From a virus (Duplodnaviria; Heunggongvirae; Uroviricota; Caudoviricetes), in IMG/VR virus record IMGVR_UViG_2571042005_000001, positions 48,446 through 112,445 of that record: a stretch of 64,000 bases of DNA. The stretch is one strand, 5' to 3'. Below the pieces are notes generated by a model, which was not told the origin of the DNA, ran no database searches, and saw nothing but the letters and a program-made list of their open reading frames with translations. Below, one piece after another: positions 17,259 through 64,000 of this stretch. How positions within the stretch are numbered: position 1 is the stretch's first letter; each line of letters begins with the position of its first letter. A program made the translations under genes and the position numbers.

Positions 17259-17335
17259 TGGCGATCCGGGCAGGATTTGAACCTGCGACCCTGCGTTTTG
17301 GAGACGCACGCTCTACCAGACTGAGCTACCAGATC
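17259..17335 (-). tRNA. tRNA-Trp (anticodon CCA), 77 nt with encoded CCA
   Basis: The reverse complement folds by eye into a cloverleaf: acceptor GATCTGG/CCGGATC, D-arm GCTC-AGTCTGGTA-GAGC, anticodon stem TGCGT/ACGCA with loop CTCCAAA, T-arm GCAGG-TTCAAAT-CCTGC, discriminator G, CCA. Confidence 0.8.
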
Positions 17336-47992: not shown

Positions 47993-48817
47993 TCATTTGA
48001 GTTGCACGAAGGGGACGGTGCCCCCAGAGTAAGTGGGCAGTTTCCCATCCCATTTCTGGATGGCTTCGTATTGCACCAGTTGAGGGGTGATGGTTTTGGC
48101 TTTGAGTTTTGCTGCTTCAGCGTCCGCTTTGGCTTTGGTGATGATTTCGTAAGCCCGGGTGTCGGCTTGCAACCGGCGCTTTTCGGCTTCTGCGCGGGTG
48201 GCTCGGATTTCGTTTTCGCGCTGGATGGCTATTTGTGTGGCTTGCTGTGCAGCGTCAATGCTCTGTTTGACTTCGCGGGGCAGGATGATCTGCCCGGTGA
48301 ACATGAAGTTGTCCACCTGAATGAACTCCTTGGAGAGCCTTTCGCGGATCGCTTGGGCCACTTTGAGTTGAAATTCGGGGCGTTTGGTGCCGTTGATTTC
48401 CATTGCGCTGTACTGGGAAGCCACCGAGGTCACTGCGTCTCGCACAATGTCCCGACCTACGGTGTCGATGATGTCAGGGGATTGCTTGCCGTATTTGCTG
48501 TAAATGTTGGGGGTTTTGCCGCGCTCGAAAGCCATGGAGAAAGCCACGTCCGCGGAGAGGGACAGGCCTTCTTTGCTCTGGAATTTCAGGTTGTCTTCGG
48601 CTTTCCATTCAACGCGCTGCAGGCGCACTGGGAACACGATGATGTCCTCAGTGAACGGGTTGTAGGTGATGCGTCCAACCACGATGTTGCTGGTGGTGAC
48701 TTCACGTTTCGCGCCGAGCGTGTCCACCCGGATGGCTTCCTCGTCGGGGTTGACGGTGGTGATGGCGCAGGAGGTCATAAAGGCGATGGCCAGAAACAGG
48801 AAGGGGTGCTTTTTCAT
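47993..48817 (-). CDS. SPFH / band-7 (prohibitin-stomatin-flotillin) domain lipoprotein (274 aa)
   Basis: Lipoprotein signal MKKHPFLFLAIAFMTSC (lipobox MTSC). The SPFH-like core is followed by a long Ala/Glu/Lys-rich coiled region (EIRATRAEAEKRRLQADTRAYEIITKAKADAEAAKLKAK). Confidence 0.65.
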   Translation of the reverse strand: MKKHPFLFLAIAFMTSCAITTVNPDEEAIRVDTLGAKREVTTSNIVVGRITYNPFTEDIIVFPVRLQRVEWKAEDNLKFQSKEGLSLSADVAFSMAFERGKTPNIYSKYGKQSPDIIDTVGRDIVRDAVTSVASQYSAMEINGTKRPEFQLKVAQAIRERLSKEFIQVDNFMFTGQIILPREVKQSIDAAQQATQIAIQRENEIRATRAEAEKRRLQADTRAYEIITKAKADAEAAKLKAKTITPQLVQYEAIQKWDGKLPTYSGGTVPFVQLK

Positions 48818-57258: not shown

Positions 57259-57333
57259 TGGAGGTCAGGGCAGGAATCGAACCTGCAATCTGCCCTTTAC
57301 GAAAGGGCTGCTCTGCCATTGAGCCACCTGACC
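57259..57333 (-). tRNA. tRNA-Thr (anticodon CGT), 75 nt with encoded CCA
   Basis: The reverse complement gives a cloverleaf by eye: acceptor GGTCAGG/CCTGACC, D-arm GCTC-AATGGCA-GAGC, anticodon stem GCCCT/AGGGC with loop TTCGTAA, T-arm GCAGG-TTCGATT-CCTGC, discriminator T, CCA. Confidence 0.8.
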
Positions 57334-58179: not shown

Positions 58180-58509
58180 TCACCTGACTGTTCTGGTTGA
58201 TTCCTTCTGAGACTTCCTGCGACGACGCGCCCTGAAACGCAAGAACTCCTCTGGGGCCGGCTCGTTTTCAGTGAGCAGGTCCTCATAGCGGGCGATCTGT
58301 TTGTCCTCGGGCAGCTTGCTGTTCAGAAAGTCGCGGTATTGCTTCAGGATCATGAAAGTGGGGTTGTAGATGGGTTTCCTGAACCACTTGTACGCCGTTT
58401 CCTTGCTGATTCCTGACTCTGTGACGAACCGTTGCTTCTGGCGTTCGGCTGACACGTCAAAACCAGCGGTCTTCAGGAGGTCAAAAAGTTTATGAGGAGA
58501 AACGTACAT
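58180..58509 (-). CDS. Cro-like / small regulatory protein (109 aa), divergent from the CI-like gene
   Basis: Leftward gene abutting an AT-rich operator region. Basic C-terminus (RFRARRRRKSQKESTRTVR). Confidence 0.4.
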   Translation of the reverse strand: MYVSPHKLFDLLKTAGFDVSAERQKQRFVTESGISKETAYKWFRKPIYNPTFMILKQYRDFLNSKLPEDKQIARYEDLLTENEPAPEEFLRFRARRRRKSQKESTRTVR

Positions 58510-58561
58510 GTGTAACTTATTGTACTCAGCAGTCTAAATGAAAGTCAACACTTTAACTGCT

Positions 58562-58623
58562 GGGCACACTTTTTGATATTGTTCAAATTTTACAGAGGGC
58601 AGAGATGAGCAAAAAGTGTAACC
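58562..58623. promoter_or_regulatory. Operator: imperfect inverted repeat (GGGCACACTTTTTGAT ... AGCAAAAAGTGTAACC) in the Cro/CI intergenic region, inside an AT-rich divergent promoter region (58510-58710)
   Basis: The arms CACACTTTTTG and CAAAAAGTGTA are reverse complements (10 of 11 positions), separated by about 30 bp. The same ACACTTTTTG core recurs at 59846, 59937 and 60150. Confidence 0.5.
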
Positions 58624-58710
58624 AGAGGTTTGTAAGCTCCGTGTGATACGTGATATAGAATCATTTATATTACTGAGTACCCTAAATGCAGGGTTGGAGG
58701 AAGGTCCAGA

Positions 58711-59284
58711 GATGCCAAGGAAACCCGTTGCAACACCCAAGCCAGAGAAGATCATTGATGCCAGGGATGCCGGGCTGGCTTTGAAGCATTGGATGAAGAG
58801 CCACATCAATCCGAGAACAAACCAGCGGTGGACGCTTGACGAGTTGGCTTCCGTCACGGGGATCAGTCGAACCACTTTGGGGCATTACCTTTCTGGGAAT
58901 CGAGATCTTCGCAAAATCACCCAACCGATTGCACAGAAATTGCTGCCTGTGCTGGGGATGACGGATCAAGAGTTTTGGGATTATTTTGATGTCCCGCAGA
59001 AACGGTGGGCTGAGGTGCGGGTGTTTGATCAGCCGGTGCAGCGTCTGGAAGCGGAGACGCTGCACATTGTTGCTCAAGATGAAATCAAAGGTGAATGGCC
59101 CATTGCTGTGGGCATTCACCTTTACGTGCAGCCAGATGAAGGCACTGGCTTTTTGTTGTTCAAAGTGGGCGATGAGCTGAGGACTTACCGGAGCGATTCG
59201 GCATTCATTCCTGCAGGAGCAAAATCAGTTGGCGCGATCCTATGGGCTGATGCAGAGCCTCTGCTGCGCGCATTGCGTCGCTGA
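58711..59284 (+). CDS. CI-like repressor, XRE-family HTH N-terminal domain plus uncharacterised C-terminal domain (190 aa; start MPRKPVAT with RBS GGAGGAAGG)
   Basis: HTH segment WTLDELASVTGISRTTLGHYLSGNRD. Divergent arrangement with the Cro-like gene. No clear S24 Ser-Lys dyad was seen in the C-terminal domain. Confidence 0.5.
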
Positions 59285-59483
59285 AATGTTCAGGTTGCAC
59301 CAAAATCCGCATGTGTTCCCCTTCTGGCTGCATTTGCAGGGGGAAGCGCCTAGCGAGCAGGGCGGCTTCCCGAGGGGTCAATTTCACGGTGAGCTCTCGG
59401 GTGTAAGTGGATTCAAAATGTTGGGTTGTTGTCATGAGGGGTTCCCGGGGTGGTGCCGAATTGCAACCTGTGCTTGTGGTTGT

Positions 59484-59720
59484 TTATGATTTGCAGTTCA
59501 AAATGAGGGTTTCAACTTCTTGCATGTTTTGCTGGACCACATAATAGTAGTCCGCATCACCATACCGGCGACTTGTGTAAAGAATCCATTCGGATTCCAG
59601 CAAGTCGCGTTGTTCTCTGGTGAGACCTGTCCCGATGCAGACTAGTCCATCCAATTGGTATTCTGCGGGGAAGTTGCTCCTATTTGTCGATGGTGCAGTC
59701 ACAAAAAACCTCCGTAACAC
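59484..59720 (-). CDS. Hypothetical protein (78 aa)
   Basis: Minus-strand ORF. Confidence 0.3.
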   Translation of the reverse strand: MLRRFFVTAPSTNRSNFPAEYQLDGLVCIGTGLTREQRDLLESEWILYTSRRYGDADYYYVVQQNMQEVETLILNCKS

Positions 59721-59943
59721 AAGATATTGCGATTCAGGTTATTACAGGGTTGTTTGAATAAGGTATCACACTTATACGAATTAAGGAATTACACCTATCT
59801 GAAAAGGGGGTTTTGGGGTAAGTGAAAACCCCTAAAGTTTGTAAGGTCACACTTTACATTTTCACCATGCACTCATGCGTCAATTTTTGGGGTTTTTGGG
59901 CGTGTTTTGACGCCTCAAAGACAAGCAACCCCCGCAAAAGTGT

Positions 59944-59975
59944 GACCAAAAAGAACCCCCGAATGGTTCGGGGGT
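59944..59975 (-). terminator. Rho-independent terminator (minus strand) downstream of the TPR gene and small ORF
   Basis: CCCCCGAA-tgg-TTCGGGGG stem followed on the minus strand by TTCTTTTTGG. Confidence 0.55.
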
Positions 59976-60032
59976 CCAAAGTCCCATCTTGAAGTTCAGC
60001 AACTGGCGCAAGGCCCGGGAGGATTTCCTCCA

Positions 60033-60149
60033 TCAGCATATGCAGCAGAAGGGGTGGCCAGAGAGAAAAGGGCAACAAGAACCAGACTCAGCATACGTCT
60101 CATCATGATCTAAACGTATGCTGAATACCACGTGAAATCTCAAAAGCAT
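60033..60149 (-). CDS. Candidate small peptide gene (38 aa: MLLRFHVVFSIRLDHDETYAESGSCCPFLSGHPFCCIC), start 2 nt after the TPR gene's stop codon
   Basis: It shares a reading direction with the TPR gene and lies between that gene's stop and the terminator at 59944-59975. Hydrophobic N-terminus and Cys-rich C-terminus. It overlaps an 11-bp perfect inverted repeat (tcagcatacgt-N16-acgtatgctga, 60088-60125), which could instead be an operator or hairpin. Confidence 0.3.
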   Translation of the reverse strand: MLLRFHVVFSIRLDHDETYAESGSCCPFLSGHPFCCIC

Positions 60150-60151
60150 GG

Positions 60152-61606
60152 TCACACTTTTTGATTGATGAAGGGCGAAATCAAGTCCAGCACTGGCTGC
60201 AGGATCAAAGGGTACACCCCGTGCCGCTCCATGGCTTCCCGGTGACGGTAAGCCTGGGTGCGTCCCCTGCGGGGCAATTTTTGACCAGACAGAACCCCCA
60301 GAGCGAGTCGAACCATGTATTTTTTGGGGCAACCCGGGTATTTTCTGTTCCGCCATTTTGCCTTTTCGTAGGTGACCACCACATAATCTTCGACGTGCTT
60401 CTGGAGCCCTCCGAACCGCTCGGACAGCAGGTACATGACCACTGGGGTGAAGTTTTTCATCCACGTGATCAGGAATTGCTGTTCGCCTTCAGGAAGGTGT
60501 TTGAACTGCCCCACCATCATTTTTGCAGCTTGGTCCAGCTCTGGGCCCCGAGGCAACTCTGGGAGGTTCGCATGAATCTGGATTTTGGTGGCGTAGTACA
60601 TCAAGGCCAGCACCGGAATGCCTGTGGTGGGGTGCCGGAAACTGCTGTTGAGGTGCTCCAGAGCGGTGAGGTCGTGGTGCAAGCTCTTGGCAAGGGCCAC
60701 AACGGCATGTGAAACAAAACCGTTGATTTCACCCCGGTTGGCCCCGGCATGCTTGGTGATGGCGTCCACGAGCTGCTGGCGTTCGTCGGCCACCTCTTCG
60801 GTGTGCATCAGCATGAAATTCAGGTGGTAATGCTCGTAGAGTTTGCCCAACTTGCGAAACAACTTGGCAATCCACGGCAAGAATGCCTCCGGTGCCTCTT
60901 CGTAGTTGTCCCGACTGAACTGGCCTTGCAGTTCAGCGATGGCTTTCTGCATGTGCAGGGGCAATTCTGTGGTGGGAGATGACTGCATCCAGGCGATCAT
61001 CCCCAGGTACTCCTGGCAGCCGACGTACATCAAACTGTTGGGCACGCAACCCTGCATGACACCCTTAAAAGCATGGGTGGCTGCACTAAAATCACCCCGG
61101 AACAAACGCATGCGTGCCATTTCATAGGAAGCAATCCACTCGGCGTTCTGGTCGCCGGTCATTTTGGCGATTTTGATTGCATCAAACATCCGAATGTCGG
61201 CCTGCGTGTGACGCCCGATCTGGTTTGCAGCGGTGGCGACTGCGAGCAGCAGGCGGAACCTTGCTTCCACATCCGTCCCAGTATTCACTGAGATGTCCGG
61301 GTTGAGGCTCTCAGCCATCATCTTCAACTGCGCTTCATTGGCCCTGCGGGTCAGGATGGCAAAGTACCAAGCTTTGCACAACTGGCAGCCCTTGTGCTGG
61401 TACAGCAACGCCAGAGCTTCATCGATCTGGCCGAGCCTGGACAGGATCCGGGCGATCCTTGCGTCCCGGATGCTGGAGTCCGGCAACTGCCGCAGGGCAG
61501 CCAGCAGGTCAGCATAACGGTTTGTGGCTTCAACCTCTGCATAAAAAGCCGACCATTCCACGTGCTGGTGGATCAATACATTCAATTTTTCTGCATCGGG
61601 AATCAT
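60152..61606 (-). CDS. TPR-like helical-repeat regulatory protein (about 484 aa; start MIPDAEKLNV)
   Basis: Helical repeat composition throughout, with recurrent A/L/Y/W-rich pairs of helices. Located two genes from the CI-like repressor. Preceded by an AT-rich promoter region (61610-61660). Confidence 0.55.
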   Translation of the reverse strand: MIPDAEKLNVLIHQHVEWSAFYAEVEATNRYADLLAALRQLPDSSIRDARIARILSRLGQIDEALALLYQHKGCQLCKAWYFAILTRRANEAQLKMMAESLNPDISVNTGTDVEARFRLLLAVATAANQIGRHTQADIRMFDAIKIAKMTGDQNAEWIASYEMARMRLFRGDFSAATHAFKGVMQGCVPNSLMYVGCQEYLGMIAWMQSSPTTELPLHMQKAIAELQGQFSRDNYEEAPEAFLPWIAKLFRKLGKLYEHYHLNFMLMHTEEVADERQQLVDAITKHAGANRGEINGFVSHAVVALAKSLHHDLTALEHLNSSFRHPTTGIPVLALMYYATKIQIHANLPELPRGPELDQAAKMMVGQFKHLPEGEQQFLITWMKNFTPVVMYLLSERFGGLQKHVEDYVVVTYEKAKWRNRKYPGCPKKYMVRLALGVLSGQKLPRRGRTQAYRHREAMERHGVYPLILQPVLDLISPFINQKV

Positions 61607-61660
61607 GAGCACCTCTCTCAGTGTAACAAAAGGCACGGGGGGGTACCCCGTGCCAAGCGG

Positions 61661-63532: not shown

Positions 63533-63538
63533 TTTGGG

Positions 63539-63770
63539 CATGACACACGATGACCTCGAACAACAACTGGCCGAACAACTCAAAACCCGCATGGCCCAGC
63601 AAGGCCACACCCAAGAAAGCCTCGGGCTGGCCATCGACCCAGCCGCCAAACAACCCAGACAAAACATCCACCAGTACCTCTCTGGCAGTCGCAGTTTGCT
63701 GGTCGGCACCACCCTCAAAATCCTGAAAGCCCTCGGAGCCAAACGCATCCACATTGAATGGAAAGACTGA
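63539..63770 (+). CDS. Small XRE-family HTH protein (77 aa), probably leaderless
   Basis: HTH segment QGHTQESLGLAIDPAAKQPRQNIHQYLSGSRS. The ATG lies at the predicted transcription start. Immediately followed by the iteron array. Confidence 0.5.
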
Positions 63771-63990
63771 CCCGAGACCTTTTTGTGTGGTTTGTCCCCA
63801 GAACAGAGACCTTTTTGTGTGGTTTGTCCCGGGCCCAGCAGAGACCTTTTTGTGTGGTTTCAGCAAAAGCCCCAGCAAAAGCCACCTGTAGACACAGGGA
63901 CCTTTTTGTGTGGTTCAAAACCCACCACCACCAAAACACCGTTCTGCACAAGATTTCCTCAGAAGCCCAGAACAGAGACCTTTTTGTGTG
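63764..63990. repeat. Iteron-like array: at least 5 direct copies of GAGACCTTTTTGTGTGGTT at irregular spacing (32, 35, 57 and 77 bp). The array runs to the window edge.
   Basis: Copies at 63764, 63796, 63831, 63888 and 63965. Copies 2 and 5 share the longer unit cccagaacagagacctttttgtgtg. Confidence 0.75.
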
Positions 63991-64000
63991 ATTCACCCCC

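Follow-up and report, generated by a model that had tools for sequence, protein, structure and literature searches.

Does the lysogeny region of this phage encode a peptide-signalling module comparable to arbitrium? To our knowledge, phages of the Bacillus group are the only ones in which peptide communication is known to steer the lysis-lysogeny decision. The question is raised by a stretch of 64,000 nucleotides of the virus record IMGVR_UViG_2571042005_000001 (positions 48,446 to 112,445; the window), for which a preliminary description had proposed that a TPR protein and a 38-aa Cys-rich peptide, encoded beside a CI/Cro-like switch, form an arbitrium/RRNPP-like pair. RRNPP systems are found on chromosomes, plasmids and phages (PMC10075063), and all descriptions of them to date come from Bacillota and the mobile elements of that phylum (PMC10075063, PMC9765709). 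In SPbeta, aimR is followed after 13 nt by aimP, then by a stem-loop, the AimR operator and a small gene (PMC6458997, PMC6536502), and the AimP hexapeptide is GMPRGA (PMC6458997).

The TPR Protein and Its Neighbors

The TPR protein gene (484 aa) occupies positions 60152 to 61606 on the minus strand, and the all-helical, TPR-like character first assigned to its product was borne out by Pfam and by an AF2 model. Pfam matches to TPR were weak for the protein itself and clearer over the whole family. A single-sequence AF2 model was unusable (pLDDT 49.6); the model retained here (pLDDT 92.1) consists of a TPR superhelix from residue 1 to approximately 405, the N-terminus being itself modelled as TPR helices, and of a novel alpha/beta C-terminal domain (residues ~405-484) with the conserved motif YPKxFM...LLxG...RxQAxRH. 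No signal-peptide-like hydrophobic stretch was found at the N-terminus of the protein or at the aligned N-termini of its family. As modelled, it is predicted to be a cytoplasmic protein with a superhelix of the peptide-binding type, as expected of a receptor of the RRNPP group.

The comparison with AimR, Rap, NprR and PlcR revealed no sequence link to any of the four. An hhalign comparison with SPbeta AimR returned a probability of 0.1%, and a PDB profile search matched LGN/Pins-type TPRs only. Foldseek searches of the AF2 model (PDB, BFVD) placed generic TPRs on top, with the Rap protein of phi105 at rank 48, and did not single out RRNPP proteins. NCBIfam, PADLOC and Rfam searches gave nothing relevant, and Pfam, family-wide and NCBIfam searches returned no HTH family match. 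The C-terminal domain, searched alone by profile against Pfam and PDB, had no match either, known DNA-binding families included, so that any role given to this domain is a guess. Generic TPR scaffolds such as LGN/Pins, APC/C subunits and MalT domain III account for the fold but not for the conserved cassette described below, and none of them has an adjacent gene for an exported peptide.

Downstream of the TPR gene and the small ORFs discussed below, the third gene of the cassette encodes 72 aa on the minus strand (59484-59702), with a GTG start codon 5 nt after GGAGG in an ORF that is open from 59720; the L001 gene call is also 72 aa (L001, L002 and so on designate the other loci of the TPR family). 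By analogy of position with aimX, this gene is a candidate output gene. Most loci have an ORF of 71-78 aa there, which is not conserved as a family: the L002/L014 clade alone showed homology among its members (51% identity, E 1e-21). Next comes a 76-aa ORF on the same strand (59205-59435), without a family match in Pfam, NCBIfam and other profile searches, the 3' end of which runs 80 nt into the convergent CI-like gene. The latter (58703-59284, plus strand) encodes a 193-aa CI-like repressor candidate with an N-terminal HTH_3 domain (E 1.7e-5, 25.2 bits, cut-off 23). Divergent from it lies the gene of a 109-aa Cro-like protein (58180-58509, minus strand; weak HTH_3 match, E 0.05), with a promoter-like site nearby at 58548-58519. 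A 193-aa protein encoded at L010 had no detectable homology to the CI-like protein of the window.

A Small Family Tied to Deinococcus

The TPR family is very small and unannotated, with approximately 20 clusters among 1.84 billion proteins. It emerged from an exhaustive HMMER search, a word-indexed protein search having returned only 1-2 relatives. No homologues were found in GTDB genomes, IMG/VR and JGI metagenomes, where searches were pattern-limited, or in GenBank phages and PLSDB plasmids. Its members come from phages, plasmid-like elements and chromosomes of Deinococcus. At L004 the cassette is a self-contained insertion of three genes between DinB and miaB in a chromosome similar to that of Deinococcus roseus, at L010 and L011 it adjoins a phage integrase, and L007 and L014 are two paralogous modules on one element. 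Together with the CI/Cro-like genes of the window, these contexts fit a mobile lysogeny module.

Judging from the sequences of its relatives, the family is tied to Deinococcus as host clade. An exact tRNA-Thr match and tblastn searches with the terminase, the integrase, the DUF5131 protein and a 762-aa protein gave nothing decisive on the host of the present phage. The IS4 transposase at L007 shares only 37-44% identity with Deinococcus plasmids.

A Gene for a Predicted Exported Peptide Follows the TPR Gene

Which small ORF accompanies the TPR gene? The 38-aa Cys-rich ORF initially put forward as the propeptide gene (60033-60149, minus strand) does exist, 2 nt past the TPR stop codon and thus tightly coupled to it. 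Its proposed role did not survive comparison of the loci. A counterpart was present only in the 95%-identical L001 and in none of the 10 other independent family loci, and all differences between the window and L001 within this frame are non-synonymous (LLRFHVVF to LLRIHVAF, GHP to GCP). Moreover, its N-terminus lacks two marks of a signal peptide, a charged n-region and an uninterrupted hydrophobic core. What is conserved is accounted for by an overlapping ORF in another frame, and the 38-aa ORF is most likely no gene; that it encodes the propeptide appears extremely improbable.

The overlapping ORF (59996-60106, minus strand) starts 45 nt after the TPR stop codon, with no obvious Shine-Dalgarno sequence before it, and encodes 36 aa: a Sec-type signal peptide, MMRRMLSLVLVALFSLATPSAAYA, then a 12-aa tail, DGGNPPGPCASC, that ends in P-C-x-x-C. 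All 11 independent loci, the TPR proteins of which share 21-42% identity, have a counterpart in position and composition directly after the TPR gene, so the suggestion that homologues keep a small ORF at this place holds for the 36-aa frame and fails for the 38-aa one. The peptide ORFs (36-53 aa) start at most 56 nt past the TPR stop codon, one of them overlapping it, and end in C-x-x-C in nine loci, C-x3-C in one and C-x5-C in one. Signal peptides were called from their n/h/c-region pattern. As read from these sequences, each of the 11 modules would thus have a small gene for an exported propeptide beside its putative receptor, as in RRNPP systems. The pairing is also specific. When 153 kb were filtered in six frames for a signal peptide and a terminal Cys pair, 10 ORFs passed, 9 of which directly follow a TPR gene.

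The codon differences fit this frame as the conserved gene. Between the window and L001, the differing codons of the 36-aa ORF comprise three synonymous and one non-synonymous; each of the other frames has none and three, respectively. The single amino-acid change lies in the signal peptide, and in close locus pairs generally the changes in the peptide were confined to the signal peptide, with none in the tail. Across the family, the tails track receptor relatedness (Mantel r = 0.31, reached by 124 of 5000 permutations), as illustrated by GGNPPGPCASC and GGNGPGACSVC or by TWPPPAGPCATCG and AWPPPYGPCSDCG, tail pairs from related receptors.

Do such peptides have to be signals? The two products of the cassette, TPR protein and Cys-pair peptide, could cooperate without communicating. 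The exported peptide might then be a small factor of the envelope, a lipoprotein or an agent of superinfection exclusion, or else a Sec-dependent antimicrobial or a peptide with metal or redox activity, and the TPR protein would be its regulator, chaperone or immunity partner. Small exported proteins of lysogeny modules are often exclusion factors, e.g., Ltp of TP-J34 and Cor of HK022, and 4 of the 11 signal peptides have lipobox-like ends (L-S-S-C, L-I-S-C, V-G-C or L-V-S-C). The invariant Cys pair also suggests chemistry (disulfide formation, metal binding) beyond a recognition epitope alone, and the TPR fold has no proven RRNPP link in the Foldseek results. However, the mature parts of the peptides, which are Pro- and Gly-rich and only ~12-30 aa long, are far shorter than known exclusion proteins, and the co-variation of the tail with the TPR protein would be less expected of such a factor. 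Strict coupling of peptide and TPR genes persists in the non-phage chromosomal contexts of L004 and L017, and the loci share no dedicated transporter or modification gene beside the pair. On balance, we consider a non-communicative function unlikely. A RiPP precursor was also considered, radical-SAM genes lying near L004 and L005, and was rejected: the L004 enzyme is the host miaB, the loci have no modifying enzyme in common, and what precedes the tails is a Sec signal peptide, not a leader peptide.

Two predicted RNA structures lie at the start and just past the end of the 36-aa ORF. A palindrome reported earlier (60088-60125) corresponds to a predicted RNA stem-loop at 60086-60126 on the minus strand (15 bp as folded, dG -26.1, z -2.2), which overlaps both small ORFs and holds the start codon of the propeptide gene in its loop. 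In L005, L010, L002, L007 and L004, comparable hairpins cover the Shine-Dalgarno sequence or the AUG of the peptide gene. The intrinsic terminator described after the small ORF was likewise recovered, 19 nt past the propeptide stop codon (59945-59977, minus strand), as an 11-bp stem with 7 GC pairs (hairpin at 59977-59953) followed by TTTTT.

Repeated DNA Motifs in the Cassette and at the CI/Cro-like Switch

Our search also recovered the repeats on which a receptor-binding site had been proposed: three exact copies of GGTCACACTTT at 59845 (plus), 59937 (minus) and 60150 (plus), and a related inverted pair by cI/cro with one-mismatch copies at 58562 (plus) and 58613 (minus). With at most one mismatch, these five are the only matches in the 64-kb window and they fall within 1.6 kb, 1.5 being expected window-wide. 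Most extend to 13-15 bp. Site A (60149-60163, TGGTCACACTTTTTG) overlaps the TPR stop codon, and site B (59936-59948, TGGTCACACTTTT on the minus strand) comes directly after the T-run of the terminator. Site C (59845-59855), inverted to B with ~80 bp between them, lies upstream of the third gene. Sites D (58561-58575, TGGGCACACTTTTTG) and E (58610-58624, CAAAAAGTGTAACCA) form an inverted pair with a 34-bp spacer in the divergent CI-like/Cro-like promoter region, with D shortly before the -35 of the leftward promoter-like site and E upstream of that of the rightward one. In comparison with L001, the cores of D and E are conserved as islands and the spacer between them has diverged.

Sites A and B are mutually inverted and enclose the propeptide gene together with its terminator. 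None of 400 shuffles reached the bracket inverted repeat of the window, and such a repeat was individually significant here and at L010, L004 and L007, and not significant in 7 of the 11 loci. A degenerate core, GT[TCA]ACA, defined after inspection of the data, lies +1 to +9 nt from the TPR stop codon in five loci (background 0.4-1.7 per kb). L003 has an equivalent third motif copy +156 nt after its peptide stop codon.

Is the TPR protein the reader of these sites? A simple dimer operator would not span their spacings of 34, ~80 and ~200 bp. The motif might instead form a long-range stem in the mRNA that encloses the propeptide cistron (processing or stability), or be bound by the CI-like, Cro-like, small downstream or a host protein. 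Over 13-15 nt, site A is complementary to site B, and read-through of the terminator would place the two on one transcript. The arms at L007 have the opposite orientation to those of the other loci and are still mutually inverted, which suits RNA pairing. A different protein would fit the lack of a recognizable DNA-binding domain in the TPR protein and the position of D and E within the CI/Cro control region. Against an RNA stem, the mismatches of D and E are not G-U compatible, and both sites lie upstream of the promoter-like sites and are therefore probably not co-transcribed. The GT[TCA]ACA core recurs across loci that share only the TPR and peptide genes, which points to a conserved protein as reader. 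The bracket inverted repeat is present at L004, where CI/Cro genes are absent, and a separate inverted repeat (58517-58541/58661-58685) overlaps both -10 regions and is a better candidate than D/E for the CI/Cro operator. We therefore regard it as rather unlikely that the motif is something other than an operator of the TPR protein.

Comparison With Arbitrium and Other RRNPP Systems

The locus resembles the arbitrium system (AimR-AimP-AimX) of SPbeta and phi3T in the succession of receptor, short gap, signal-peptide propeptide of ~40 aa and stem-loop, and in the long-spacer inverted repeats followed by a small non-conserved gene (PMC6458997). Site B has the position that the AimR operator of SPbeta has relative to aimP and the stem-loop (PMC6458997). 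Both systems belong to the lysogeny regions of temperate phages, and in both the C-terminus of the propeptide is a conserved motif with variable specificity positions. As far as sequence can tell, the gene order is that of arbitrium, with a putative receptor, propeptide, operator and small gene in turn. However, there is no detectable sequence homology to AimR, and the present receptor candidate lacks an N-terminal HTH, is ~100 aa longer and has the novel C-terminal domain. Its peptides end in P-C-x-x-C instead of an AimP-type hexapeptide. The repeat arms of 13-15 bp are spaced 34, ~80 and ~200 bp apart, whereas those of arbitrium are 6 bp with a spacing of 25 bp, and further motif copies lie at the CI/Cro promoters. 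Finally, the host clade is Deinococcus here and Bacillus there.

With the RRNPP receptors at large (Rap-Phr, NprR-NprX, PlcR-PapR, Rgg/ComR, and the phage Rap-Phr of phi105 and phi3T), the locus shares a predicted cytoplasmic TPR receptor beside an exported propeptide, the C-terminal part of which is the signal in those systems and the candidate signal here. Two paralogous modules on one element, as at L007/L014, are a further likeness. In contrast, no Pfam, NCBIfam or PDB sequence link connects them with the present family, which lacks their N-terminal HTH (in Rap, an N-terminal 3-helix bundle effector domain) and has an invariant Cys pair in its peptides. RRNPP systems are also those of Bacillota (PMC10075063, PMC9765709), and the present family is tied to Deinococcus.

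Weighing these likenesses and differences, we lean towards the view that the cassette is an arbitrium/RRNPP-like receptor-propeptide module outside Bacillota. In its favor are a TPR-peptide pairing that is universal in the family and specific, tails that track the receptors, changes that spare the tail, an SPbeta-like layout and non-random cis-sites. The original idea of a TPR receptor and an exported propeptide at the switch of a phage from outside the Firmicutes is supported by the 11 signal-peptide ORFs, the gene order, the positions of the cis-sites and the Deinococcus clade; counting against it are the wrong frame of the peptide that it named, the lack of an N-terminal HTH and of sequence homology to RRNPP proteins or AimR, and a Foldseek ranking in which RRNPP proteins do not stand out. 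A bolder version, to which we give somewhat less than even credence, is that this is the first peptide communication of phages and mobile elements outside Bacillota, its TPR receptor binding DNA through a new C-terminal domain and sensing an exported P-C-x-x-C pheromone, and the Deinococcus-associated system having evolved independently or diverged beyond recognition.

In RRNPP systems, the mature peptide returns to the cell through Opp and switches the receptor by binding in its TPR groove; in arbitrium, the peptide releases the receptor from inverted repeats downstream of the peptide gene. In a module of the present kind, the propeptide would be exported and then cleaved, and its C-terminal fragment with the Cys pair would build up outside the cells and be re-imported. 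The fragment would then dock on the concave face of the TPR protein and alter the occupancy of the repeated sites by this protein, possibly via the conserved C-terminal domain. Expression of the propeptide gene, of the downstream small gene and from the CI/Cro promoters would change, and the lysis-lysogeny decision would be biased by the number of nearby infections. Because the Cys pair could form a disulfide, the activity of the signal could depend on redox state; if so, the decision would be coupled both to phage density and to oxidative stress.

The conserved mobile cassette combines a different putative receptor architecture with a new peptide chemistry. If signalling is real, the receptor-propeptide strategy would be older, or have been reinvented more often, than thought, and the family shows what detectors can miss when they depend on homology to known RRNPP receptors. 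The short length of the peptides puts them within reach of synthesis, and candidate DNA targets are mapped. With approximately 20 clusters, including one two-module element, the family is small enough to suit a study of specificity pairs.

Gene organization of the switch region

The TPR ORF, the 38-aa ORF, the terminator and the motif copies of the preliminary description were all found again, and its coordinates and features were essentially right. On the minus strand, the TPR gene (484 aa, 60152-61606) is followed, 2 nt past its stop codon, by the start of the 38-aa ORF (60033-60149), which overlaps a 36-aa ORF (MMRRMLSLVLVALFSLATPSAAYADGGNPPGPCASC, 59996-60106, minus strand) in a different frame. 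Downstream of both small ORFs lie a terminator hairpin with its T-run (59977-59945, minus strand), the third cassette gene of 72-78 aa (59484-59702/59720, minus strand; GGAGG 5 nt before a GTG at 59702) and a 76-aa ORF (59205-59435, minus strand). The latter is convergent with a CI-like gene (58703-59284; HTH_3, E = 1.7e-5), from which a 109-aa Cro-like gene (58180-58509) diverges. The position of the cassette at the phage lysogeny switch, with associated repeated sites, is established.

Since a GC-rich 9-bp terminator hairpin upstream of the TPR gene (61632-61654) ends only 26 nt before its ATG, expression of this gene would need either read-through from the upstream operon or a promoter overlapping the end of that operon. 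Over 80 nt (59205-59284), the 76-aa ORF and the CI-like gene share their 3' ends in convergent orientation, in the window and in its close relative L001 alike. Because of this overlap, read-through of the TPR/peptide operon would yield RNA antisense to the CI-like 3' end.

The rest of the window is phage-like, with a terminase, an S49 prohead protease, methylases, a DUF5131 protein and two tRNAs, namely tRNA-Trp(CCA) (17259-17335) and tRNA-Thr(CGT) (57259-57333), the second immediately left of the switch region. A sequence of about 20 nt (AGAGACCTTTTTGTGTGGTT) is directly repeated at 63765-63993, in five copies with irregular spacings of 32, 35, 56 and 78 nt. The copies start right after a 78-aa ORF without family match (63534-63770), reach the window end and look like iterons or an operator array.

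Identification of the propeptide gene

The peptide had been assigned to the 38-aa ORF. In the comparison with L001, the sole close relative of the window locus (95% protein identity), the 36-aa frame differs by four codons, three of them synonymous and one a replacement (T to A) within the signal peptide, while each of the other two frames has no synonymous and three non-synonymous changes. Eleven independent modules were readable (pairwise TPR identity of 21-42%), and all carry a 36-53-aa ORF on the same strand, starting at most 56 nt past the TPR stop codon; in one module this ORF overlaps the TPR stop as ATGA. A small ORF after the TPR gene kept its position in 11 of 11 modules; the 38-aa frame had no counterpart among the distant family loci. 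These loci were decisive, as only the 36-aa-type ORF recurs, and the 38-aa ORF was dropped as a mis-assigned peptide gene.

In all eleven peptide ORFs, the encoded start is rich in K/R and leads into a hydrophobic core; a cleavage region of small residues or a lipobox-like motif comes next, then a Pro/Gly-rich segment and a C-terminal Cys pair. The tails read ...DGGNPPGPCASC in the window and, in the compared loci, ...GGNGPGACSVC (L003), ...LPGGHCSDDC (L004), ...GLPGQCQVC (L005), ...SDPGHCSVC (L007A), ...PPSLCVGGSNC (L010), ...PPMVPCNIC (L013), ...WPPPAGPCATCG (L014A), ...WPPPYGPCSDCG (L002), ...WPAVPCTDC (L017) and ...PTKPCPLC (L019). When every ORF of 25-80 aa in the six reading frames of 153 kb was filtered for a signal-peptide-like N-terminus and a terminal Cys pair, ten passed, nine of which belong to the eleven post-TPR peptide ORFs. 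On these sequence comparisons, we consider it established that a cassette of a TPR gene plus a predicted exported peptide with a terminal Cys pair is conserved.

A recognisable Shine-Dalgarno was found in 8 of 11 peptide ORFs, that of the window not being among them. In at least five loci (window 60086-60126, L005 2009-2051, L010 2888-2913, L002 2652-2684, L007 11452-11475), the propeptide gene has a strong RNA hairpin over its Shine-Dalgarno or start codon; in the window, a 15-bp stem holds the start codon in its loop. Such hairpins suggest that peptide production is controlled at translation or by attenuation. The L002 hairpin precedes a U-run and thereby resembles a terminator within the first codons of the peptide gene.

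The TPR protein

An exhaustive HMMER search of 1.84 billion proteins retrieved just 20 representatives of the TPR protein family. Pfam TPR matches were sub-threshold for the window protein and consistent across the family. In the comparison with AimR suggested in the preliminary description, hhalign was negative; the family profile, searched against PDB, matched LGN/Pins-type TPRs at about 1e-9 and zero RRNPP proteins. The AlphaFold model built from a 17-sequence alignment (pLDDT 92.1, pTM 0.89) comprises a TPR superhelix to about residue 405, then a compact beta-beta-alpha-alpha-beta-alpha domain (405-484). Generic TPRs ranked first in Foldseek, and a search against BFVD gave no useful match. 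The modeled fold is compatible with an RRNPP-type receptor, and such receptors may be counted among its closest neighbours of known structure. The protein has no N-terminal HTH, a DNA-binding domain that is one of the features defining RRNPP receptors, and no sequence homology to them was found. The C-terminal domain holds the most conserved motif of the family (YPKxFM...LLxG...RxQAxRH) and had no sequence match in Pfam or PDB. Since the TPR and peptide genes alone are common to all loci, this domain is the obvious candidate for a putative reader of the repeated DNA motif.

Repeated motifs and the CI/Cro control region

With up to one mismatch allowed, the 64-kb window has just five matches to the motif GGTCACACTTT, against 1.5 expected, and all are inside 1.6 kb. 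Three are exact, at 59845(+), 59937(-) and 60150(+), and two have one mismatch, at 58562(+) and 58613(-). Site A (60149-60163) lies across the TPR stop codon, site B (59936-59948) lies in inverted orientation after the terminator T-run, and site C (59845-59855), inverted again, is about 80 bp beyond site B. Sites D and E (58561-58575, 58610-58624) are inverted relative to each other across a 34-bp spacer and precede the -35 elements of two divergent promoter-like sites; between the window and L001 their cores are conserved and the intervening spacer is heavily substituted. Two further, degenerate versions of this motif (GTATCACAC and the complementary GTGTGATAC) were seen at 59763-59771 and 58641-58649, one upstream of the 72-aa gene and the other at the -35 of the CI-like promoter-like site. 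A second inverted repeat (58517-58541 / 58661-58685), not to be confused with the GGTCACAC sites, has arms of 25 nt that are 80% complementary, with the core TACTCAG/CTGAGTA. It overlaps the -10 regions of both divergent promoter-like sites, is the better candidate for the CI/Cro operator and probably represents that operator pair.

For an unbiased test, we searched for inverted 11-mers in which the left arm was at the TPR stop and the right arm no more than 130 nt past the peptide stop. Among 400 shuffles, the observed match was reached by 0 in the window, 4 in L010, 7 in L004 and 8 in L007, and the test was non-significant in the remaining seven loci. A degenerate core, GT[TCA]ACA, defined post hoc after the data were seen (background of 0.4-1.7 per kb), was present near the TPR stop in six loci, at +1 to +9 nt in five of them and at +30 nt in L002. 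Past the peptide stop, it was found again at 13-82 nt in 7 of 9 loci scanned and at +150/+156 nt in the window and L003. The SPbeta AimR operator (6-bp inverted repeats, 25-bp spacer) sits after a stem-loop downstream of aimP (PMC6458997, PMC6536502). Like SPbeta, the window cassette has repeated sites past the post-peptide stem-loop. Sites A, B and C are thus placed where RRNPP-type regulators typically act, that is, the peptide gene and the gap between it and the next gene. Alternatively, the pairing of A with B may act at the RNA level.

A predicted receptor-propeptide system

We propose that the peptide would be processed and then sensed by the TPR protein, and that the 72-aa gene and the CI/Cro promoters would be regulated in this way. 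This proposal is based on the strict pairing of TPR and peptide genes, peptide tails that co-vary with receptors (Mantel r = 0.31, reached in 124 of 5000 permutations), the restriction of amino-acid changes to the signal peptide in close locus pairs, and a layout that parallels arbitrium. Under the main alternative, the two products would work in the envelope, or would be an antimicrobial or redox peptide and the protein regulating it; some weight is left to this alternative by the invariant Cys pair and by four signal peptides with a lipobox-like motif. The peptide-signalling concept of the preliminary description is strengthened as a predicted function. The TPR protein falls outside the AimR and RRNPP sequence families. 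RRNPP surveys cover Bacillota only (PMC10075063), and our literature search found no paper tying Deinococcus to RRNPP or arbitrium systems. In terms of predicted function, the cassette fits best as a new variant of the receptor-propeptide signalling design, one with a distinct architecture and from a new phylum.

Genomic contexts and host

In two loci (L010, L011), the cassette has a tyrosine integrase on one side and, on the other, a divergent small-gene set including an HTH_17 gene. An element of about 100 kb bears a pair of paralogous TPR-plus-peptide modules of 473 and 494 aa (L007 10001-14392, equivalent to L014 3375-7766), which face one another with three small genes between, and carries type IV CRISPR-Cas genes (Csf3, Cas6). 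Its IS4 transposase is closest to those of Deinococcus plasmids. The L017 cassette is chromosomal and adjoins oxidoreductase genes and a MalT-like regulator, and that of L004 adjoins miaB and DinB genes. The L004 MiaB is 93% identical to that of Deinococcus roseus, and all named proteins among its best 120 matches are from Deinococcus or Deinobacterium. DinB and miaB are adjacent in D. roseus, and L004 has a 2.6-kb insertion between them (L004 1819-4472 vs L016 649-698), containing just the TPR-peptide gene pair, a 71-aa gene and a further DinB paralogue, with no recombinase inside it. The cassette thus behaves as a self-contained mobile unit.

The window tRNA-Thr(CGT) had no exact match in any GTDB species representative. 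The G+C content was 50-59% in the loci, 56% in the D. roseus region and about 58% in the window. From the sequences compared, the link of the cassette family to Deinococcus is regarded as established, and from family membership, GC content and shared samples we infer that the host of the window phage is Deinococcus.
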